Source: an uncultured Chthonomonadaceae bacterium (GTDB taxonomy: Bacteria > Armatimonadota > Chthonomonadetes > Chthonomonadales > Chthonomonadaceae). Taken from it: a DNA stretch of 64,000 nt. The stretch's first letter is position 1. Every line of letters starts with the position of its first letter. The notes beneath the pieces were generated by a model. The model ran no database searches and was not told the origin of the DNA. It saw only the letters and a program-made list of their open reading frames with translations. Below are positions 36,786 through 47,852 of the stretch, in pieces. The DNA lies in the NCBI GenBank assembly GCA_963835065.1, contig CAWIEK010000001.1:128001-192000 (forward strand), written 5' to 3'. Position numbers and translations under genes: made by a program.

Positions 36786-36827
36786 ATGCTCTTACGGAGT
36801 TGAACCTGCGCCTGCCGCAACGGCTTA

Positions 36828-36905
36828 GGGTTCGTAAAAGTATAACTTCCCGAACAGGCGGGAACGCTGACCTTTGCAAACGGGAACTTATACTTTTACG
36901 GACCC
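36828..36905. mobile_element. MITE family B, copy 3 (inverted relative to copy 2)
   Basis: TIRs GGGTTCGTAAAAGTATAACTTCCC; TTA flanks; interior closely matches the reverse complement of copy 2. Confidence 0.78.
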
Positions 36906-36991
36906 TTAGGGTTGGCAACAGGAGGCGTGTCATCCGAGAACGTGGCGAAGTTCTCCAAGCCTACGTCTACACCCGCTTCCTTGCAGGAGGA

Positions 36992-37672
36992 TTAGCGATT
37001 TGAACTCTGATAAAGAAGAAACAACTCATCTGTTGCTGATTCAACGGAATGGATGCCCTTTTCTGCATCAGCCAACATGCCGTTGGCTTGCTTAATCAGC
37101 TTCAGATAGGCGGGATTGCCTGTGCTGCCGAACTCTTCCCACGCCTTGCATAGTTCCGAACGCAGCGTCAACACGTCCGCATAGGCAGTGTCCACCGCGC
37201 GCATTCCTTTGCGAATGGCGTCTGGAAGAGAGGCCGATACTGCCAATCGGCGAAAGCCTTGCGCATCCATGCGCAAAGCAATTCCGGCTGTATGGAAAAC
37301 ATGCTTATTGACGTTAATCGAGGCTCGCAGTCTCGCTACGCTCGTCTGGCGACGCGCCACCAGCAATGCCGCCCTTGCTTTTCCGTCATGTGCCGCCGCC
37401 ACAGCAGCGAGCGCTTTACGCGCCCGCGCCCAGTTTTCGTAAGCCGCTACCGAAGGCGGCGCGGCTGTCGTCCCCTCGGTTGATGGCTTCATTTTCGTCG
37501 TGGCCTGAGACGAGGGCGCGGGGGAGGACGCTATGGGCGTTGCCGCCACCACCGGGGTATCCGGCGATTGTTGTTGGCCGCTCTGCTCGGCGGACCGGCA
37601 TCCGGCAAACCAAAATTGAAGAGTGAACGCGATTGGCAGAATGAACACTCGTTTAGAATAGCGGTGTGACAT
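36992..37672 (-). CDS. Hypothetical lipoprotein
   Basis: Lipobox FAGC, Pro/Ser/Thr linker, helical domain; AGGAG RBS. Confidence 0.75.
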   Translation of the reverse strand: MSHRYSKRVFILPIAFTLQFWFAGCRSAEQSGQQQSPDTPVVAATPIASSPAPSSQATTKMKPSTEGTTAAPPSVAAYENWARARKALAAVAAAHDGKARAALLVARRQTSVARLRASINVNKHVFHTAGIALRMDAQGFRRLAVSASLPDAIRKGMRAVDTAYADVLTLRSELCKAWEEFGSTGNPAYLKLIKQANGMLADAEKGIHSVESATDELFLLYQSSNR

Positions 37673-37700: not shown

Positions 37701-38222
37701 TCAAGATTTCCCGTCCGGCACATCTGCCGCTGCCGGCCTTTGCGTGGCCTGATAGTCGAGAAGGACATAGCGAGAAAAGACGGCCAGAAGGAGCATCAGG
37801 GCGGCTCCGCACATCGCAGAGGCGTAAGTTTCGATGACAGCCTGTTGGCGGTCAGTGGCGCTGCCGTCTAAGATGACGTAGCCGATAATCATCGCAAGCA
37901 GGCACACAACGGCTAAAACGCTTCGCCGGTTCGTGCGAGACCGGGATTCCTTCTGAATATTTATGAAAGAAACCGCAGTGAAAAACTCAAGCAAAATCCC
38001 CAAGCTCAGACATCCTGTGCCGATGTCGTAGGTTCCCTGTCGCTCACGCGCATCATGCACTTCCATGAGTTTCCTCTGAAACTCCAGATCAGCGGAGTAA
38101 CCGCTATTTTCATGATACACAGCGCCCGGCCTGGTGCCGCTGCCAATGATGAATAGGAATGCCGCGATTGAAAAGACCAGGCACAGGCTGCCGATCATTC
38201 CATAAACAAACGCCGGTCTCAT
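37701..38222 (-). CDS. Hypothetical membrane protein (about 4 TM)
   Basis: AGGAGGT RBS; four hydrophobic segments. Confidence 0.75.
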   Translation of the reverse strand: MRPAFVYGMIGSLCLVFSIAAFLFIIGSGTRPGAVYHENSGYSADLEFQRKLMEVHDARERQGTYDIGTGCLSLGILLEFFTAVSFINIQKESRSRTNRRSVLAVVCLLAMIIGYVILDGSATDRQQAVIETYASAMCGAALMLLLAVFSRYVLLDYQATQRPAAADVPDGKS

Positions 38223-38393
38223 GCTGGTTACCTCCTGATGTTCCTGGCAGGCTGCGCTGTCAAATCCGCAACTTACCTGCAAGCGGGAATGCAAGGCGAG
38301 AAGAGCAAAGGCGGGGTTCGTCAACAAACGTTTGCATTGTCCGCTCTCCGCTCAATAAATTATCATAAAGCATGTTGCCCCTAAAATAGAAAG

Positions 38394-38474
38394 ATTCACG
38401 GTAAATTCACCGGGCGAGCATAGGTGTGCCATGCAGAATACAGCAGGGCAGCGCTATGTGAATTTTCTGTGAAT
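38394..38474. promoter_or_regulatory. Two inverted pairs of 11-bp-periodic direct repeats (candidate SARP operators)
   Basis: ATTCAC at 38394 and 38405; GTGAAT at 38458 and 38469. Confidence 0.55.
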
Positions 38475-38549
38475 TTACGTACACGCGAGCGCCGGTGGAT
38501 TAGAATCTCTATAGCATCCGTCTATGCAGGGGATCGGCGGTTCGCCGTT

Positions 38550-38591
38550 GAATGTACAGCGCGTGGCAGCGAATGTGCAGCGCGTGGCAGC
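38550..38591. repeat. 21-bp tandem duplication
   Basis: GAATGT(A/G)CAGCGCGTGGCAGC x2. Confidence 0.85.
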
Positions 38592-38612: not shown

Positions 38613-40472
38613 ATGGCGCGTGTTGGCAATGGTGGCCTTGAACTTCGGCTTTTCGGCCCGTTTGATGCCCGCCTGAATGGAGAGCCACTTGCCGGACTGG
38701 CAGAACATCGCCGCGCCGCGCACGTGCTCGCGTTTCTTGCCTTGCATGGATCGCGGGTTCTGGATCGAGAATGGGTCGCCGATCAATTATCTGAAGAAGA
38801 CGCGGGCGGAAATCGAATCGAATTTACGCAGGAGAATTTGCGGCAGCAGTTGATGGCCGCGCGGCGAATGTTGCAGGAGGCTGCTCCGTCCCTTGTATCC
38901 GGTCATGGGGTTCTGTCGCTGGCAATGGAGACTTGCTATGTGGATACACATGCGTTCGACAAAATTTGGGACGCGCGCCAAACCGACCCGCGCGGCTTGG
39001 AGCGGATTGTCCAGGTCTACCAGGGGCCGCTGCTGCAGGATTGGAACGAAGCCTGGCTGCGGCCACAACGCGACGCCTACGCCCGAAAATACCTGAAGTG
39101 TCTCCAAGCGCTTGCGCGACAGGCGGAAGAAGACGAAAACATGGAAGCCGCCATTGACTATCTGGCAATGGCGGTGGAAACGGACCCCATCAGCCAGCAG
39201 GCGCAGAGCAGGCTACTGAAGGTACTGCTTGCTTCTCATGAGTATCTCAAAGCGAAGCAGGTATTTGAGCAGTATCATACGCTTCTTCGGGAACAGGGTA
39301 TGCCGCTTGCGCCGGAAATGCTCCTCCTCTGCGATCAGATTCCGAAACACGAAGCGGAGGCTGTTTCTTCCTCCAATGTCGCTTCCAGTGTCGCTTCTTC
39401 TAATGCTGTTTCTTTAAATGCCGCTTCTTCAAATGCCGCTTCTTCCGTCGGGGCCGCTTCCGTTGATGTGGAACCGCCCGGCGGCGCGGTACCGCTCCGC
39501 TCCCGCTATTATATCGTTCGCCCGGCAGATACGGAGTGTCATACAGCGATTGCCCGCAGGGACAGTTTCGTTTTGCTGCACGGTTCGCGGCAAGTCGGCA
39601 AAACCTCGGTACTGGCGCGGGGAGTGGAGCAGGCCCGGCGTATGGGCGCGCAGGCGCTGCATACCGACTTTCAAAAGTTCAGCGCCGCCGAAATGGAGTC
39701 CCTGGATTCCTTCTTTCTCTCCCTGGCGCGGCGCATAGCCAGAACTCTGAACCTGCCCGTCTCCCTTCACGACATATGGGATGACCATCTGGCCCCCGGT
39801 ATGAACTTCGAGCAGTTCTTCCTGGAAAGCGTACTGGAGCCTATCCCCGGCCCCGTCGTCTGGGGGTTGGATGAGGTGGATCGTCTGTTTACCTGCGATT
39901 ATCGCGGCGATGTCTTCAGCCTGTTCCGCTCCTGGCACAATGAGCGCGCGTTGGCTCCCGGCACACCCCTGGAACGGCTCACAATTCTCTTCTGCTACGC
40001 GGTGGAGGCCAACTGCTTTATTCCCAACCTCAATCAGTCTCCTTTTAATGTGGGAACCAGCATTGCCCTCAACGATTTCTCGCAGTTTCAGGTAGAAGAG
40101 CTTTGCAGCCTGCACGATCTTCCCACAGAGGAGGCCGTCTCTCTTTTTGCCCTGACCTGCGGACATCCTTACCTGACTCGCAACGCGCTCTACGCGCTCA
40201 AGACGCGACAGATGAATTGGAATTCGATAGCGGCGCAGGCTGCCCGCGAGGAGGGTCCCTTTGGCAGCCATCTGCGGCATCTTCGCAAAACGCTTATGGA
40301 AAACGAACCGCTTTATCGCGTCGTACAAGGCGTTTTGAAGGGCGAAGGCTGCGCGAACTCCGAGGCGTTCTATCATCTGACAGCGGCGGGCATTCTGAAA
40401 GGGGAGTCGCCGGAGGCCATCGAATTCCGCTGTCCTCTCTATGAAACTTATTTGAGAAAGCGCCTGTTATGA
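38613..40472 (+). CDS. SARP-type (wHTH-BTAD) transcriptional regulator fused to an AAA_35 NTPase
   Basis: LRLFGPF, LAFLAL, VD..AF, YQGPLL..W...W, DPISQ (BTAD); GSRQVGKTS, LDEVD, SPFNVG, GHPYL (AAA_35). Confidence 0.88.
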   Translation: MARVGNGGLELRLFGPFDARLNGEPLAGLAEHRRAAHVLAFLALHGSRVLDREWVADQLSEEDAGGNRIEFTQENLRQQLMAARRMLQEAAPSLVSGHGVLSLAMETCYVDTHAFDKIWDARQTDPRGLERIVQVYQGPLLQDWNEAWLRPQRDAYARKYLKCLQALARQAEEDENMEAAIDYLAMAVETDPISQQAQSRLLKVLLASHEYLKAKQVFEQYHTLLREQGMPLAPEMLLLCDQIPKHEAEAVSSSNVASSVASSNAVSLNAASSNAASSVGAASVDVEPPGGAVPLRSRYYIVRPADTECHTAIARRDSFVLLHGSRQVGKTSVLARGVEQARRMGAQALHTDFQKFSAAEMESLDSFFLSLARRIARTLNLPVSLHDIWDDHLAPGMNFEQFFLESVLEPIPGPVVWGLDEVDRLFTCDYRGDVFSLFRSWHNERALAPGTPLERLTILFCYAVEANCFIPNLNQSPFNVGTSIALNDFSQFQVEELCSLHDLPTEEAVSLFALTCGHPYLTRNALYALKTRQMNWNSIAAQAAREEGPFGSHLRHLRKTLMENEPLYRVVQGVLKGEGCANSEAFYHLTAAGILKGESPEAIEFRCPLYETYLRKRLL

Positions 40473-43400
40473 GTTCTTTTCCCTCGGACTTCCGGGCGCA
40501 GTTTTATACCTGCGGCGGCACGATGACAGGCGATGACCCATCCTATGTGGAGCGGGAGGCAGACGCCGAACTCTTCGCGGCGCTGCGGCAGGGGCAGTTC
40601 TGCTATGTCTTAACCGCCCGTCAGATGGGCAAATCTTCCCTGATGGTGCGCGCGTCCCGGCGGCTGCAAGCAGCGCTCCGCCCGGAAGCAGGCGCTGTCG
40701 CGCTGCTCGACCTTTCCGCTATCGGCCAGAATGCCTCTGAGGAATCCTGGTACTACACGCTGCTGACACAGATGGGAAAGCGATTGGGATTAAGTGGGGA
40801 GATGCGCGAATTGTGGCGCGCGCAGACCGATCTTCCTCCCCTGCAGCGTTGGATCATGGGAATAGAGGAGATTGTTCTGAAGCGTTTTTCCGGGCCGGTA
40901 GTGATCTTTCTGGATGAGATTGATATGGTGCGGGGCCTGACGTTTAAGACAGACGAGTTTTTCATCGCCATACGCGCGCTTTATAACCGCCGCGCCCTGG
41001 AACCGGGTCTGGAGCGGCTTACCTTCTGCCTGCTCGGCGTCGCCACACCCTCCGACCTGATCCAGGACGCGCAGCTGACCCCCTTCAACATTGGCAAGCG
41101 CATCGAGCTGACGGACTTCAGCCTGGAGGAAGCCGCTGTTCTGAAATGGGGCATGAGTGGCGAGGAACTCCTCAGCGACATGCTGCTTAAGCGCGTCCTG
41201 TATTGGACGGGAGGGCATCCCTATCTCACGCAGTGCCTTTGCCAGGCCATCAGCAAAAATCCCTCCCACCAAACCACAGAGGCAGTGGATGAGTTGTGCG
41301 ACGGGATGTTCCTTTCCGGCGGCGCGCGGGAAAAAGATATCAACCTGCAATTCGTCCGTGACCGGCTTCTGAAGTCGGCGGGAGATATAGCCGCTATTCT
41401 GGAACTCTACCGGCAGGTTCTATCCGGGCATCGGGTAGCGGACTCGGAAGCGGATCAGCGCATCAGCGTACTCCGGCTTTCCGGCGTTGCGCGCGTCATT
41501 GACAGGCATCTCGCCGTCCGTAATCGCATCTATGCGCGCGTTTTTAACCGGGAGTGGATACTGGCGCACATGCCGGACGCCGAACTGCGGCGGCAGAAAG
41601 CCGCCTATCGGAAGGGCATTTTCCGCGCCTTGTTCGTCTCCGGCGGCATACTCGCCGCCATAGCGCTTTGTGGCATGGTCGCGTTTATACAATGGCGGCA
41701 TGCCGTCGCAGAAGGGCTGCGCGCGTCCGCAGAGGGTCTTCGCGCGTCCGCGGAGCATCGTCGCGCAGAAGGCTTACGCTATACCTCGGACATGGCATTG
41801 GCGCAAATTTATTACGACCGTCAGCAGTATCGTCGCCTGGCGCAGGCGTTGACGGATCACTTGCCTTCCCCGGAGGAAAAAGAGGACCTGCGCGGCTGGG
41901 AGTGGGGCTACTACTGGCAGCGGATGCACCGTGATCTGCATACGTTTCAGCATAAGGGAAAAGGTATCGTCTATTCAATAGCCTTCTCTCCCGACGGCAA
42001 AATGTTGGCCTCGTCCAATGGCGACGGCTCGATCCGCTTCTGGGATACCATGTCAAAGCGCGAGATGCCGCCCGGCCTGGACGAGCATAACGACGAGGCG
42101 CTTTCCGAGGTATTCTCCATCGCCTTTTCCCCGAAAGACTCTAATCTCCTGGCCTCCTGCAGCGCCGATGGCACGATCAAGTTATGGGATGTCGCCGCTC
42201 GGCGCGTAAGGAAAACGTTCTCTTTCGGCGCGGCGGTAAACGCGCTGGCTTTCTCCCCTGACGGCAAGTATCTGGCGGCAGGCGACGCGAAGGGCGTGTT
42301 GTCCCGCCTGGATATGGCTTCGGGCCGCGTCACGCCATGGCAGGGTGGGAAAGAAGATGCGATCAACGCGGTGGCCTTCTCCCCCGATGGCCGTTGGCTG
42401 GTCGCCGGGTATGCCCCCAGTGGCAAGATCAGGCTCCTGGAGGCGTCTTCCCAACGCGCGATAGACCTCGCCCCCTCCTCTGCGCAGGGTCATATCTATT
42501 CGACGGCTATCTCCCCGGACAATCGCGCGCTGGCAATCGGCAGGAACGATGGCACTACGGAGATATGGGATATTCCCTCAAGGCACAGGGTAAACACGCT
42601 TCACGGCCATACCGACACGGTTCATGGCCTGGCATTTTCACCTGACGGCAAGTGCCTGGCAACCGGCAGTTGGGATAATACGATCCGCCTGTGGAATCTG
42701 GCAGAGCGCAAAACAATTCACACCTTCATCGGCCACACCAGTAGGGTCACGTGCGTCGCATTCTCCCGCGACGGCAGCGTCCTGGCCTCCGGCGCGGGAA
42801 ACGAGGTCAAGTTCTGGGATACGCGGCGGCTGGAGGACAATCCACGCATGTTGAATTGGCCGGTCAACCTGAAAATGGAGGGTTACGCGCAAGAACTGGC
42901 GTTTAATGCCAATAGTGTTCCCAATCTATGGATCAGGAAATCTCATCCCTCTGCGCTGACACTGTTTGACCTTACGGACTGGCGTAAGCGCCAATCTTTA
43001 GAAATGCCGGCAAATCCAGGCAGTGCCGCCTTTTCACCGGATCACAAAATGCTGGCTATGGGAAGTAACGATGGAACGGTGAGGCTGCAAGACTTACAAA
43101 CAGGAAAGGTGAAATCTTGTTTCCCGGTTGACGCGCGCGCGAAAGAGCGCAGGCAGATAGATGTTTGCAGCCTGGCCTTCTCTTCTGACGGTAAACTGTT
43201 GGCAGCGGCGAGTGGAGACCCTGCTGTCGTAACGCTGTGGGAAGTCGCCACGCAGCGGCTAATCGGGCAATTTCAGCACTCGAATGCCGCGCAGAGAATT
43301 GCTTTCTCCCCGCAGGGAACCCTGCTGGCGGTTGCCAACTGGCAGGGCCACGTTTTTGTGTGGAACTACGCGGCACACACGGGGAAAGTAGAAGTAAAGG

Positions 43401-43681
43401 ATGTGGAAGGCTGGGCGGCCCACAGTAAATCCGTAACGGACGTCGCCTTTTCTGCGGACGGGCGCACACTTGCAACCGGCAGCGAAGACCACACCGTCAA
43501 GTTATGGAATGTTGCCACGAAACGCGAGATGATTACATTTCGGGATCATAAGGAGGCCGTCTATAGAGTTCAGTTCTCTCCCGACGGCCGTATGCTGGCT
43601 ACGTTAGACCGTGACCATAAAATTTGCCTCTATTCTGCGGCTCTTCCGAGGGAAGTCAGCATGGACAAAGTCAGTCCCTGA
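40469..43681 (+). CDS. AAA_35 NTPase - transmembrane helix - WD40 beta-propeller protein
   Basis: YVEREAD, ARQMGKSS, LDEID, TPFNIG, TGGHPYLTQ; TM FRALFVSGGILAAIALCGMVAFI; LRGWEW; a dozen or more FSPDG/WD repeats. Confidence 0.9.
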   Translation: MSSFPSDFRAQFYTCGGTMTGDDPSYVEREADAELFAALRQGQFCYVLTARQMGKSSLMVRASRRLQAALRPEAGAVALLDLSAIGQNASEESWYYTLLTQMGKRLGLSGEMRELWRAQTDLPPLQRWIMGIEEIVLKRFSGPVVIFLDEIDMVRGLTFKTDEFFIAIRALYNRRALEPGLERLTFCLLGVATPSDLIQDAQLTPFNIGKRIELTDFSLEEAAVLKWGMSGEELLSDMLLKRVLYWTGGHPYLTQCLCQAISKNPSHQTTEAVDELCDGMFLSGGAREKDINLQFVRDRLLKSAGDIAAILELYRQVLSGHRVADSEADQRISVLRLSGVARVIDRHLAVRNRIYARVFNREWILAHMPDAELRRQKAAYRKGIFRALFVSGGILAAIALCGMVAFIQWRHAVAEGLRASAEGLRASAEHRRAEGLRYTSDMALAQIYYDRQQYRRLAQALTDHLPSPEEKEDLRGWEWGYYWQRMHRDLHTFQHKGKGIVYSIAFSPDGKMLASSNGDGSIRFWDTMSKREMPPGLDEHNDEALSEVFSIAFSPKDSNLLASCSADGTIKLWDVAARRVRKTFSFGAAVNALAFSPDGKYLAAGDAKGVLSRLDMASGRVTPWQGGKEDAINAVAFSPDGRWLVAGYAPSGKIRLLEASSQRAIDLAPSSAQGHIYSTAISPDNRALAIGRNDGTTEIWDIPSRHRVNTLHGHTDTVHGLAFSPDGKCLATGSWDNTIRLWNLAERKTIHTFIGHTSRVTCVAFSRDGSVLASGAGNEVKFWDTRRLEDNPRMLNWPVNLKMEGYAQELAFNANSVPNLWIRKSHPSALTLFDLTDWRKRQSLEMPANPGSAAFSPDHKMLAMGSNDGTVRLQDLQTGKVKSCFPVDARAKERRQIDVCSLAFSSDGKLLAAASGDPAVVTLWEVATQRLIGQFQHSNAAQRIAFSPQGTLLAVANWQGHVFVWNYAAHTGKVEVKDVEGWAAHSKSVTDVAFSADGRTLATGSEDHTVKLWNVATKREMITFRDHKEAVYRVQFSPDGRMLATLDRDHKICLYSAALPREVSMDKVSP

Positions 43682-43715
43682 ACCGAATACCTAATCAGTT
43701 GATCAATTCAGTTGA

Positions 43716-43994
43716 TCAATGTGGGGCGCGCAGGGATGGCAGCCTGCTGAGTTTGAGCTGCTTCTGGTTACGCGCCTGTGAGGGGCTAAGTTCGTCCTTC
43801 GCGCCGATGCCGCTCCAATGGATGACAGCAGCGCCGAGACATACCAAAGCGACCCCGGCGATAGCCACCGCATGAGGCAGTTTCAAACCGGCAAGCGGTA
43901 TGGTATCGGCGTCGGGCAGGGATTTTGGCTTACCCGGCGTGGAAATAACCCCGTTCTTGCTGTGGCCGCGATGAATGGTGACAAGTTTTGCCAT
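43716..43994 (-). CDS. Small single-TM protein downstream of the DUF1559 gene
   Basis: GAGGA RBS; one hydrophobic helix. Confidence 0.6.
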   Translation of the reverse strand: MAKLVTIHRGHSKNGVISTPGKPKSLPDADTIPLAGLKLPHAVAIAGVALVCLGAAVIHWSGIGAKDELSPSQARNQKQLKLSRLPSLRAPH

Positions 43995-44029: not shown

Positions 44030-44887
44030 TCAATTGGGCCAGAACGTCGTAAGATTAGCCTGCGCTTGCAGGTACGCCAGGCACGTTCGCGAGGCTCCGG
44101 GGTAGGCCGGCCCGTCCGGGTTGGCGCACCACTTCCCATAGTCCTCGGCATGTTTGGGAAAGGCGACGGTTGTGCCATCGGAGTAGACGCCGCCCTGCCA
44201 GGGCAGGGATTTGGCATGACCATCCGCATACAGCATGTTGAACTGGCCGCGATGCCGCAAGTCGCTGTTGCGGCTGCCGGCGAAATTACTCAGGATCGCA
44301 TTCCAAACCACTGTGTAGAACGGATAGTCGTAGGTATCTCCGAAGGCGAAGGTGTCGGCAGGAGCCACGAGCGCCGCGAGGGACTGGCCGGGAGCCACAT
44401 ACACGCTGCCTGTCTGGGATAGAGCCTGCACCAATCCCCCGCCCGCATAAACGTTGACGCCGAAGTTGTAGCCATAGCCCAGGCAGCGGTCACTGCGAAA
44501 CCCGACTTCGGTAAATCCAAGACTGTTGCAATCCTTTGCGGTTCGGTCAGGACAAAAGAAAACTTCCTCATTGTTGATATAGGAATGGAGAGCGGTGGAA
44601 ATGTCATAGGCGAGATTGGACGGCGCGCTCCCGACCAGAACTAACGTCGGGTAAGTCTCATCGTTGTCCTGCGCGTACATACTCAGCGCGCTGCCAAGCT
44701 GCCGGGTATTGCTCAGGCAGGCCGTTTTGCGCGCGCTTGCCCGCACTTGCGCAAAGACAGGAAAGAGGATCGCGGCCAGTATCGCAATAATCGCGATGAC
44801 CACAAGCAATTCTATGAGCGTGAAGCCCTGATGCCGCCCTCGCAGGGCAGGCAAACCGCAAGGGACAGACGGGGAAAAAGGGCGCAT
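44030..44887 (-). CDS. DUF1559 prepilin-type N-methylation / H-X9-DG protein
   Basis: [49 protein letters not shown]. Confidence 0.92.
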
Positions 44888-45002: not shown

Positions 45003-47852
45003 CTAGGCCGCTTTGCTGAATTCGTTCGGGGTTTCCGCAGGAACGGGCGATGCCGGCAAGCGCTGTTTGCGCGCGGCGCGCAGGAACGCGGCGGCGATTA
45101 CGGGATCGAACTGTGTTCCCGCATTGGCGCGCACTTCCGCAAACGCCACTTCCCAATCCATGCCGCGCCGATAGGGGCGGTGCGTGGTCATGGCGCTGAC
45201 CGCATCGGCCACCGCCGCAATGCGTCCCAGGAGGGGAATGGCCTCGCCCTGCAATCCATCGGGATAGCCTTTTCCATCCCAGCGCTCATGGTGCGAACGT
45301 ACCACGTCCACAACGTTTTTCATGTCCGGCAGAGAGCCGACGATGAGCGCGCCCAGCAAGGGATGCTGTTTCAGAATATCGTATTCTTCGTCTGTCAAAC
45401 GCCCCGGTTTGCGCAGTATCTCGTCGGGAACGCCGATCTTCCCGACGTCATGGAGCAGCCCGCCGATACGCAAAGCCCGCAGCGTTTCCTCGGACAGTCC
45501 CATTTCTTCCGCAATCCAGAGCGCGTACTCGGTAACGTCTTCGGAATGTCGGCGCGTATAGCGGTCTTTGTTGTCCACAGCGGAAACCATCGAATCCAGA
45601 ACGCCATAAGAAGCCTCGACCCGGAACTCGCGGTTGGCGCGCTGAAATGGGGTGCTGCGTCCGATGCTGTCTCCCGACAGCTTGGCCGTATACAGGTTTT
45701 TATCGGCGATTGTCAACAATTCATGGCGGTTGCCGCTGTCATCAGGAAACGACGCGAGGCCGAAACTGAGGGTAATGGGAATAACGCGCTCGTCGCTGTC
45801 GCGGCGAAATCCCTCCGCCATGAGATGCGCGCTCATGCGCTCGGCGATCTGCACGGCCGTTTCCGGCGTAATGCCCGGCATGACGACGATGAATTCGTCG
45901 CCTCCATAGCGCCCCAGGCTGGCGGTGGACGGGCACTCCGCCCGCATGGTTTCCGCCACGCGCCGCAGCACCTGATCGCCGATGGGATGGCCGTAGGTGT
46001 CATTGAACAGCTTGAAATTGTTCAAATCCAGCATCATCACCGCAACGGGCTGATTGCTGTCCCGCGCCTGTACCAGCGCTTTGTCCAGGCGCTGGTGCAT
46101 GGCGCGGTGATTGAGCAGGCCCGTTACGGGGTCACAATCCGCTGCGGCCACTGCCGTCCCGTACAAACGCGCATTTTCCAGAGCCGTTGCTACGGCCAGC
46201 CCGATATTTTGCAGCAGTTCGGCTTCCGCCGGTTCAAAGCCGGATTGCCAGCGGAGGATGCCGATCATGCCGCGCAGCCGATGCTGCCATAACAACGGGG
46301 CGCGGAGGCAGTAACCCTCCCCGGCTTCCCCGTTCCAATCCGAAGCCGCGTGATCGCCCGGCGCGCTGCTTGTTGTGGCGGAGGGCGGCAAGCCCGCTAT
46401 TCCCGGCAGCGGCAGCGCGATCACCTCGGTTTGCGCAAGCACGGGCAATTGTTCCAGATAGGAAAGCATTGCAGGTAACATGGTGGTCTTGCCGACCGGC
46501 AGCATTGCGGCGCGAGTGTTCGCTTCCTGCGCGTTTTCCGACTCCTCAGCCCCGGCTTCGCACAGCCATATCACGACGGCATCCGCCTGAAAAGCCTCCT
46601 GCGCCTGCTCCCCGGCCAGCGTCAGCACCTCTTCCACCTTCAGCGTATTATTGACAGCCGTATTGATCCGCAGCAGGGCGCTGAGTTGTTGGGTGCGCCG
46701 CGCGACCCTGTGTTCCAGCGTTTCATTGAACGTCACCAGTTGCCGGGATAACTGCCGGTTTTCGAGCAGCGTGAAAACCTGTCGCAGCAGCACAAGCAGC
46801 AGCATGAGCAGGCCGATACTCAGCGTTTCATTGCTGATCTGTTTGTTGCCATGCGAGTAGTCATGCACAGAAATGATAAGGAAGGCGCCCAGACTGGCGA
46901 CGTAGGGCATGAACATCGAAACCAGGCGCGGAACAACCATGAAGGTATAACTTTTGGACGCTTTGCTGCCCTCGATACTCAAATCATCGGCTTTGCAGAA
47001 GGGAATCAGCGCGGCAAGGCCAATCGAAACAGACCCAAGCGGCCAGCCTACATCCGTCCAGGAACCATCATGAAACGCGCTGTGCAGGCGGGAAAAGGCG
47101 TAAACGAGGTCGGCGAATGTCCACGCGACGATGCCGCCAACCAGAAACAGCAGCGAACGCCGCAGATTGCGGTTTGTGGAAGGGCTGTTAAAAAGGACGA
47201 TAGCGCCAAAAACAGCGGCGAAGTCGCCAAGCGGATACGCGACGCTGGCGAGTTTTCCCAGGTGCGAAACCCCGGACTGCTGCCAGATGCGCTCCACCAG
47301 AAAATACCAGCCCAGAGCGGCCAGGCTGCTGTTGGCAATCGCGCTGTCGAGCAGCAGGCGCATGCGCCCGGCCTGGGGCATGCTGCCGAATAAGGCCAGC
47401 ACACCCCCGATGAGCAGGGGGAAAACAAGCAGCCAGGCGGCGTCGTCCCATCCGGGAAACGGCGCTTCCATGCGCTGTGTGCCGACACGATGCATGCCGA
47501 CATAATAAAAATAGATGACGTCGCCGACGGAATAGGCCAGGCACGCGAGGCCAATCAGCAGCCAGCCGCGCTGACGCGCTACGCTGCTGTGACGTCCAAA
47601 GCAGGCATACACAAGGTTACAAAGCGCAGCAAACAGATGCGGGCCGATTTGCAAAAAGTATTCAAACGTTTGCCCCAAAGTACCCCGTCCGCCTTGCGCT
47701 ATGCAGAGCAAGAGATACAGGAGCGGGAAGCCCATAGCGCTCAGGAAGGCGGCGTATTTATGTCGGGACCACGTTAAAGTTCGCATGTTTCCAATCGTAT
47801 CTGTATCTGTACCAATGGGAACCTGGCAGGATAGGTTTAAGGCAAGTACCAT
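45003..47852 (-). CDS. Multi-TM sensor - GAF - GGDEF - HD-GYP protein
   Basis: About 9-10 TM helices; GRYGGDEF; LLHDVGK, HHERWDG.GYP; start may be 47786. Confidence 0.92.
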   Translation of the reverse strand: MVLALNLSCQVPIGTDTDTIGNMRTLTWSRHKYAAFLSAMGFPLLYLLLCIAQGGRGTLGQTFEYFLQIGPHLFAALCNLVYACFGRHSSVARQRGWLLIGLACLAYSVGDVIYFYYVGMHRVGTQRMEAPFPGWDDAAWLLVFPLLIGGVLALFGSMPQAGRMRLLLDSAIANSSLAALGWYFLVERIWQQSGVSHLGKLASVAYPLGDFAAVFGAIVLFNSPSTNRNLRRSLLFLVGGIVAWTFADLVYAFSRLHSAFHDGSWTDVGWPLGSVSIGLAALIPFCKADDLSIEGSKASKSYTFMVVPRLVSMFMPYVASLGAFLIISVHDYSHGNKQISNETLSIGLLMLLLVLLRQVFTLLENRQLSRQLVTFNETLEHRVARRTQQLSALLRINTAVNNTLKVEEVLTLAGEQAQEAFQADAVVIWLCEAGAEESENAQEANTRAAMLPVGKTTMLPAMLSYLEQLPVLAQTEVIALPLPGIAGLPPSATTSSAPGDHAASDWNGEAGEGYCLRAPLLWQHRLRGMIGILRWQSGFEPAEAELLQNIGLAVATALENARLYGTAVAAADCDPVTGLLNHRAMHQRLDKALVQARDSNQPVAVMMLDLNNFKLFNDTYGHPIGDQVLRRVAETMRAECPSTASLGRYGGDEFIVVMPGITPETAVQIAERMSAHLMAEGFRRDSDERVIPITLSFGLASFPDDSGNRHELLTIADKNLYTAKLSGDSIGRSTPFQRANREFRVEASYGVLDSMVSAVDNKDRYTRRHSEDVTEYALWIAEEMGLSEETLRALRIGGLLHDVGKIGVPDEILRKPGRLTDEEYDILKQHPLLGALIVGSLPDMKNVVDVVRSHHERWDGKGYPDGLQGEAIPLLGRIAAVADAVSAMTTHRPYRRGMDWEVAFAEVRANAGTQFDPVIAAAFLRAARKQRLPASPVPAETPNEFSKAA

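Follow-up and report, generated by a model that had tools for sequence, protein, structure and literature searches.

To our knowledge, characterised STAND and NLR proteins sense inside the cell and do so within a single chain. STAND NTPases typically exchange nucleotide and oligomerise when a ligand binds. The Npun2340/2341 family was reportedly placed within the MNS-clade STAND NTPases by Leipe et al. in 2004. In Synechocystis, the WD-repeat protein Hat is said to be membrane-bound and to have a regulatory phenotype (Hisbergues, 2001), and its layout reportedly comprises an N-terminal domain of unknown kind, one hydrophobic helix, and WD repeats. The SARP domain of AfsR is inhibited by the NOD and TPR, an inhibition that ATP binding lifts (PMC10936776). 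The nSTAND2 conflict operon consists of two adjacent STAND NTPase genes whose products are predicted to hetero-multimerise; one partner is eroded, with GT4 or HEPN effectors, and the accessible part of the source does not mention a membrane sensor (PMC8195603). The Npun2340/2341 family also occurs in that part of PMC8195603, by name only and with no architecture, topology, mechanism, or SARP output. Here, we analyzed a window of 64,000 nt from an uncultured Chthonomonadaceae bacterium, in which two genes, designated A and B, each carry an AAA_35 NTPase and are joined by an ATGA overlap (Table 1). Reading of the ORFs reproduced the two ATGA-coupled genes described in a first-pass annotation of this DNA. 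The pair is real, ordinary within its lineage, and apparently uncharacterised in print.

Table 1. Features of the A/B locus (positions in the window).
Feature	Position	Strand	Description
Gene A	38613..40472	+	SARP-type activator, 619 aa; ORF read in window
Gene A head, wHTH-BTAD	about aa 1-250		Followed by a Ser/Ala-rich linker, then the C-terminal type-A AAA_35 STAND NTPase
Type-A NTPase module of gene A	39468..40469	+	P-loop domain, helical domain after G.P, winged-helix-like end; AlphaFold and Foldseek
Gene B	40469..43681	+	1070 aa; N-terminal type-B AAA_35, TM helix, stalk, WD40 array
Gene B TM helix, predicted	41633..41689	+	aa 389-407; the one hydrophobic helix in the sequence scan
Gene B WD40 array	41954..43648	+	About 13 divergent blades, probably two propellers; predicted extracytoplasmic
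Candidate operator GTGAA-N6-GTGAA toward gene A	38458..38473	+	11-bp period
-10-like hexamer TAGAAT, gene A side	38501..38506	+	Predicted; 32 nt past start of last repeat
Candidate operator GTGAA-N6-GTGAA toward divergent genes	38395..38410	-	11-bp period
-10-like hexamer TATGAT, divergent side	38362..38367	-	Predicted; 32 nt past start of last repeat
Orphan membrane protein, candidate target	37701..38222	-	173 aa; four hydrophobic helices; divergent from gene A
Orphan 226-aa protein, candidate target	36992..37672	-	Lipobox-like N-terminus by eye; likely co-transcribed
21-bp tandem duplication	38550..38591	+	20/21 identical; presumed leader of gene A

Pfam searches of gene A detected AAA_35 at aa 289-615 (E = 9.9e-69) and BTAD (E = 2.8e-7). 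The wHTH alone was weak in a single-sequence profile search (E = 2.2), and a 25-sequence family profile matched the SARP domain of AfsR (E = 6e-20) and EmbR (E = 5.7e-16) over profile positions 4-245. The order of an OmpR-type wHTH followed by BTAD is that of SARPs. No hydrophobic helix was found in gene A in the sequence scan, and all 119 homologues, retrieved in a search limited to similar lengths, end at the NTPase with no sensor domain. These results agree with the earlier reading of gene A as a wHTH-BTAD output lacking a sensor, and its proposed role as a transcription activator gained support. Gene A thus resembles AfsR and other large SARPs in its homologous head and in the STAND-type NTPase behind it. 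However, large SARPs combine the NOD with a repeat sensor in one chain, whereas A ends at an NTPase that is AAA_35 and is unmatched by the NOD of AfsR, and the sensor resides on a second, membrane-anchored NTPase.

The AlphaFold model of the A NTPase has a pLDDT of 94, and its best Foldseek matches are the archaeal proteins PAB2304 (E = 1.6e-9, TM 0.64) and SSO1545 (E = 7.8e-9), which we take to be members of the MNS clade, followed by ORC/Cdc6, Avs3, Avs4, and Apaf-1. Because a confident model gives these matches, the A NTPase, as modeled, is a STAND-type module. It has the P-loop domain, the helical domain with G.P, and the winged helix of this class, but the usual effector-NTPase-sensor arrangement in a single chain is split over two genes. 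Sequence comparison of A with relatives of solved structure gave weak matches to P-loops only (E = 0.023), and the corresponding search with B found no solved-structure relative. AAA_35 is probably the Npun2340/2341 family, as we infer from the archaeal best fold matches of A and from the existence of cyanobacterial A/B pairs; the double-numbered name also hints at a gene pair.

In gene B, Pfam placed AAA_35 at aa 17-359 (E = 6.5e-25), so that profile searches bore out the family assignment in both proteins as well as BTAD in A. The A and B profiles align from end to end with 25% identity. In a quick tree of 33 + 33 rows, the A and B NTPases form the two sides of one branch (SH-aLRT 100), with cyanobacterial members in each group. 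Motif conservation was counted over 69 adjacent A/B pairs. Common to A and B are the Walker A lysine (69/69), PFN.G, G.P, and, past Walker B, an arginine that is invariant. The Walker A motif of gene A is GxRQxGK[TS], but its first glycine is absent from B, in which T, D, or N occupies the position in 69/69 paired proteins. B retains GK[ST], its Walker B DE is invariant (69/69), and the catalytic Walker B glutamate of A is kept in only 59/69. The first-pass annotation had described intact Walker motifs, PFN.G, and GHPYL in both genes; PFN.G and GHPYL are indeed found in both proteins and Walker A is intact in A, but the first Walker A glycine is missing in B.

The remainder of gene B fits its earlier description as a TM helix and a large WD40 array with no output. 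Twelve WD blades were found by pattern and a 13th is visible in the sequence; the blades are divergent, with a mean pairwise identity of 25%. Six K/R residues flank the helix on the NTPase side and three on the far side. Among relatives, a TM helix follows the NTPase of B at 71 of 75 evaluable loci; the other four comprise two with a TM further on and two with other tails. A K/R excess on the NTPase side was seen in 37/42 proteins of one set and in 49/71 of a second, slightly overlapping set, and this positive-inside bias is modest. The domains found in place of the WD40 or beyond it are the stronger evidence on topology. Behind the TM, the B protein of a Planktothrix plasmid carries CHASE2 and further TMs, and that of a Nostoc plasmid carries a peptidoglycan amidase. 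Eighteen non-WD40 tails of B consisted of PEGA/CarboxypepD (5), TPR (3), and tails with nothing detected (10). PF01183 and PF01551, presumably lysozyme and M23 peptidase, were found on other B proteins. CHASE2, amidase-type, and similar domains work outside the cytoplasm. Since CHASE2 or a cell-wall amidase sits behind the TM in relatives, the WD40 sensor of B likely faces outward, as judged from sequence; the extracytoplasmic propeller postulated at first was thereby strengthened as a prediction by the TM frequency, the K/R bias, and these tails. In two cyanobacterial B proteins a TM was undetected, and therefore cytoplasmic versions exist.

The association of the two genes is conserved, contrary to the outcome that would have spoken against the original proposal. 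A set of 33 SARP-A genes was taken from the best matches in this genome and its relatives. The B gene directly follows 28 of them, is divergent from two, lies upstream of one, and was not seen for two. At further SARP-A loci with flanks of about 1.5 kb, B was seen in 25/33. Conversely, A lies within 58 of the 80 best B loci (of 599 matches), which come from several phyla. Of the remaining 22 B loci, eight have <500 nt of upstream sequence, and A is absent from 14 of the 72 loci having at least 500 nt. Matches to the SARP-A query with E below 1e-60 occur in 72/401 genomes of the phylum (three candidates scored per genome, some NTPase-only). Pair distances of A and B co-vary (rho 0.84; 0.78 among eight paralogous pairs of one genome); this is expected from linkage alone and shows co-duplication, not binding. 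The homologue search found no genuine A-B fusion. Two apparent fusions, P0123 and P0125, are probable frameshift read-throughs, in which A covers profile positions 1-298 and 4-256 of 335, respectively. As to the outputs, 49 of 56 A N-termini were scanned (the other seven being duplicates) and gave kinase with or without TIR (19), OmpR-wHTH (12), TIR (10), BTAD (5), trypsin (1), and none (2), so that the output swapping anticipated for AAA_35 pairs is borne out. The named protein relatives belong to Chthonomonadaceae or Chthonomonadales.

The gap upstream of gene A contains a GTGAA direct-repeat box twice, back to back and one per direction, in 11-bp phase and with identical spacing to a predicted -10-like hexamer on both strands. 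The strict form GTGAATTT-N3-GTGAAT occurs only twice in the 8-Mb genome, both times at this locus. A general pattern ([GA]TGA[CAT], 11-bp period) was read from upstream regions and then fixed before counting. It was found before 11/30 training SARP-A genes and before 8/248 other genes of the training loci, four of these eight being inside SARP-A loci; the genome-wide frequency is 105/4647 genes, and the overall background is 2-3%. Held-out SARP-A genes carried it in 1/6, 6/11, and 7/33 cases, which makes 14/50 with the box and 36/50 without; other periods (8 to 14) gave 0-4, against 14/50 at period 11. The box preceded 1/13 other SARP genes of the source genome, 0/25 enzyme-output A genes, and, in its GTGA form, 0/12 OmpR-wHTH A genes. 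For the last group, a motif-free repeat test gave 4/11 at period 11 but 3/11 at periods 12 and 14, and we make no claim. Among 87 intergenic arrays of the genome, five have an in-phase -10-like hexamer once a 7-bp ATGAATG repeat is dropped, and three of these five are at the two SARP-A loci. A box-to-hexamer distance of 32/33 nt was seen in 3/14 held-out arrays versus 7/13 in training. Direct repeats at an 11- or 22-bp period by target promoters are typical of SARPs, and the 11-bp repeats near the promoter are a further likeness to AfsR at the level of a candidate operator. The usual distance of 8 bp between the 3' repeat and the -10 is not found here (32 nt, to a predicted -10), and the GTGAA box lies upstream of the -35, unlike the AfsR box at -40 to -19 given in the accessible part of PMC10936776. 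The box suggests autoregulation of the A/B operon, with the divergent genes as putative further targets. The 21-bp tandem repeat was also considered as an operator and rejected, as it occurs once, 28 period-21 duplications exist genome-wide, and other loci show mixed periods.

The box also appears to follow the recognition helix. When SARP-A genes are grouped by helix, the box is found in 19/30 of one class and 5/45 of the others (0/12, 0/7, 2/10, and 3/16). In the YNLR class, 4/7 have instead GCGT repeated with a period of 12, and no distinct box emerged in the upstream regions of the RHxLS class. With Asn helices, the fifth box base is A in 13 and C in four, and at least one A is present in 5/5 boxed loci; with Ser helices, it is C in 26 and A in four, and A is present in 3/15 boxed loci. 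Gene A of the window has an Asn helix (QENLRQ), and its locus contains four half-sites of the form GTGAA. In a tree of 17 rows, the Asn/A pairing turns up in two clades, each with support of its own, and locus L229 is one clear counter-example to the Ser/C pairing. Because the helix classes were defined with the data in view, and the genomes are related, so that kin are non-independent, the helix-to-box covariation is only suggestive. The candidate GTGAA-box operator with its proposed recognition code is the contribution added here, and the enrichment was tested independently on the held-out genes.

Of the two divergent genes, the 173-aa membrane protein lacks homologues in the 60 other genomes searched within the order, and the 226-aa protein is probably a lipoprotein. 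The upstream gene is divergent at 18/26 other loci. About 10 of 16 divergent non-B genes look exported by eye (PEP-CTERM-like tails, GloVer repeats, and prepilin), and the divergent gene is housekeeping-like at three other loci. Neighbours vary across loci, and no conserved third gene was found among them.

Here, we propose a mechanism that we regard as somewhat better than an even bet: a STAND signalling protein split in two, in which an outward-facing B relays its signal through A, and the SARP head activates its own operon and the divergent genes. In the resting state, the NTPase of A would hold the SARP head off, by analogy with AfsR. A ligand would bind the outward WD40 propellers of B, and the signal would cross the membrane via the stalk and the TM. 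B would then seed an A/B assembly at the membrane, probably by direct NTPase-to-NTPase contact and hetero-oligomerisation, and nucleotide exchange would relieve the SARP head, again by analogy with AfsR. The freed head would likely bind the two phased GTGAA boxes and induce the A/B operon itself as well as the divergent membrane-protein and lipoprotein genes. No phosphate relay would be needed between the outside signal and the neighbouring genes. The proposal is the best explanation of the domains, coupling, conserved pairing, swapping of outputs and sensors, and box enrichment found here, taken with a fold, TM, and topology that are predicted.

The same parts and targets would also serve the opposite logic, with B as a membrane anti-activator that holds A at rest until the signal releases it, like an anti-sigma factor. 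Translational coupling suits the 1:1 synthesis of such a pair, the lower conservation of the Walker B glutamate in A than in B (59/69 versus 69/69) may mean that the A domain mainly docks, and in P0124 an A domain is added to a complete SARP-ATPase-TPR regulator. However, the Walker A lysine conserved throughout both proteins and the invariant arginine suggest nucleotide-controlled assembly, and A-type outputs include kinase, TIR, and trypsin, which are typically switched on by clustering; we consider the anti-activator unlikely. A further reading makes A a self-sufficient one-component regulator and B merely a product of its regulon, or a protein with its propellers inside, with no signal from B to A. 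It could account for the lack of A-B fusions and for the unpaired A and B genes, but A has no sensor domain in any of the 119 homologues, B stays attached to A across five classes of output, and known extracytoplasmic domains fill the far side of B in relatives; we judge this reading distinctly unlikely.

The first-pass annotation had also allowed for a conflict or defence role, in which a phage or a competing cell would be sensed by the propellers at the envelope, with A triggering a protective response. TIR, trypsin, or kinase on sister A proteins, BTAD combined with TIR in 23 of the 120 homologues listed, several paralogous loci of the source genome broken into pieces, and the fold matches of A to Avs3, Avs4, and Apaf-1 are in keeping with such a role. 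PADLOC, however, gave no match for gene A, a match to the WD40 region only for gene B, and matches for 3/63 neighbours, each to a generic domain, so that neither PADLOC nor the neighbours provided a defence context for SARP-A/B. The toxic effector and defence island of anti-phage STAND proteins (Avs and bNACHT) were not found, the WD40 blades have diverged and are not high-identity repeats, and the output at this locus is a transcription activator. For the SARP version the defence role thus found no support, and we judge it distinctly unlikely. The nSTAND2 pair likewise has a STAND NTPase in each of two adjacent genes, but, compared with the accessible description in PMC8195603, A and B both keep GK[ST] and their output is transcription.

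Beyond this locus, we tentatively suggest, at a confidence just short of even for the claim as a whole, that AAA_35 pairs make up a general and so far undescribed class of bacterial transmembrane signalling, which might be called two-component STAND, in which receptor and output NTPases would couple by hetero-assembly and not by phosphotransfer. The class would extend over Armatimonadota, Acidobacteriota, Verrucomicrobiota, Chloroflexota, and cyanobacteria, and its SARP branch would have a readable helix-to-operator code (Asn-GTGAA and Ser-GTGAC). As in two-component systems, a membrane sensor gene lies beside a wHTH regulator gene, sensors (CHASE2) and outputs can be exchanged, the direct repeats are phased, and autoregulation is likely. 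Unlike those systems, the coupling would pass through two homologous P-loop domains; Pfam found no kinase, histidine kinase, or receiver domain in A or in B (for B, among the best 25 of 74 families), and the rest of B is accounted for by the NTPase, TM, stalk, and WD40. No description of the A/B pair was found in the literature, and the clade tables of PMC12803255 and PMC13581612 may still classify the family. The system is absent from the accessible parts of PMC8195603, PMC7159879, PMC12803255, PMC13581612, PMC10907252, PMC10936776, PMC7583971 (irrelevant), PMC2491639, PMC4057619, and PMC5587647, and AAA_35 gave no match in the portion of the PMC13581612 supplements searched. The literature search also found no functional paper on the abundant AAA_35 family, in accord with the first description of it as little characterised. 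If true, the split membrane-spanning STAND would be one more entry, free of phosphorylation, among the few modes by which bacteria signal across the membrane; an abundant Pfam family would gain a function, and the helix-to-operator code would make SARP-branch regulons predictable from sequence. The idea can be tested directly at this locus, which has a defined candidate operator, a pair of divergent promoters, transcription as its readout, and a specificity prediction that concerns a single residue.

The source genome has 21 AAA_35 matches. Among them are two SARP-A/B pairs, a cyclase-TIR-A, a trypsin-A, and several copies broken into fragments; its cyclase and trypsin heads were assigned by eye, and Pfam supports such heads in relatives. 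Many of its A and B genes are unlinked. Cyanobacterial A/B pairs include examples on Nostoc plasmids. The reported layout of Synechocystis Hat resembles that of B and is a lead only.

The presumed leader of gene A, which encodes the SARP head with its C-terminal type-A AAA_35 NTPase, carries a 21-bp tandem duplication that occurs only once genome-wide. Within it, CAGC(G) recurs with a spacing of 10-11-10, and the duplication could be a site for a second regulator. Repeats were also found at homologous A genes. Just 5' of those of the OmpR-wHTH type, (C/T)T(G/T)AA words spaced about 11–12 bp apart were recognized by eye at nine loci, for the most part from Acidobacteriota (L106, L108, L119, L120, L125, L135, L152, L155, and L166), and these words are probably the genes' own operator. 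At five loci (L053, L178, L206, L209, and L217), SARP-A genes with a YNLR recognition helix have a distinct repeat, AGCGTG(G/T), with a spacing of 12 or 23 bp.

The repeats and genes located around the pair of gene A and gene B (type-B NTPase, TM helix, and WD40 array) are listed in the table. The inverted repeat is possibly a REP-like element or a structured RNA. The tandem repeat following gene B overlaps the end of the convergent orphan ORF.

Repeats and genes around the A/B pair in the window
Feature	Position	Remarks
Imperfect inverted repeat, 42 nt	36811-36922	between DUF899 gene and probable lipoprotein gene
Tandem duplication, 21 bp	38550-38591	presumed leader of gene A
Perfect tandem repeat, 13 bp	43695-43720	immediately 3' of gene B
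Convergent orphan ORF, 92 aa	43716-43994	single TM
Prepilin/DUF1559 gene	44033-44887	near GAF-GGDEF-HD_5 gene
Multi-TM c-di-GMP protein gene	45003-47852	GAF-GGDEF-HD_5

In the source genome, several paralogous A/B loci (G000:C7, C54, C60, and C68) are in pieces through frameshifts or stops, reflecting either assembly error or decay. Many of its intergenic regions are rich in 7-bp tandem repeats of the ATGAATG and AATACCG/AACACCG types.

Further architectures were observed among the relatives. The protein P0124 is a complete SARP-ATPase-TPR regulator with an A-type NTPase appended, and the B protein P0126 has two B-type NTPases in tandem ahead of the TM. On a Planktothrix plasmid (L173:2652-9059), genes for DUF928 and CHAT proteins come after a pair made up of A and B-CHASE2.
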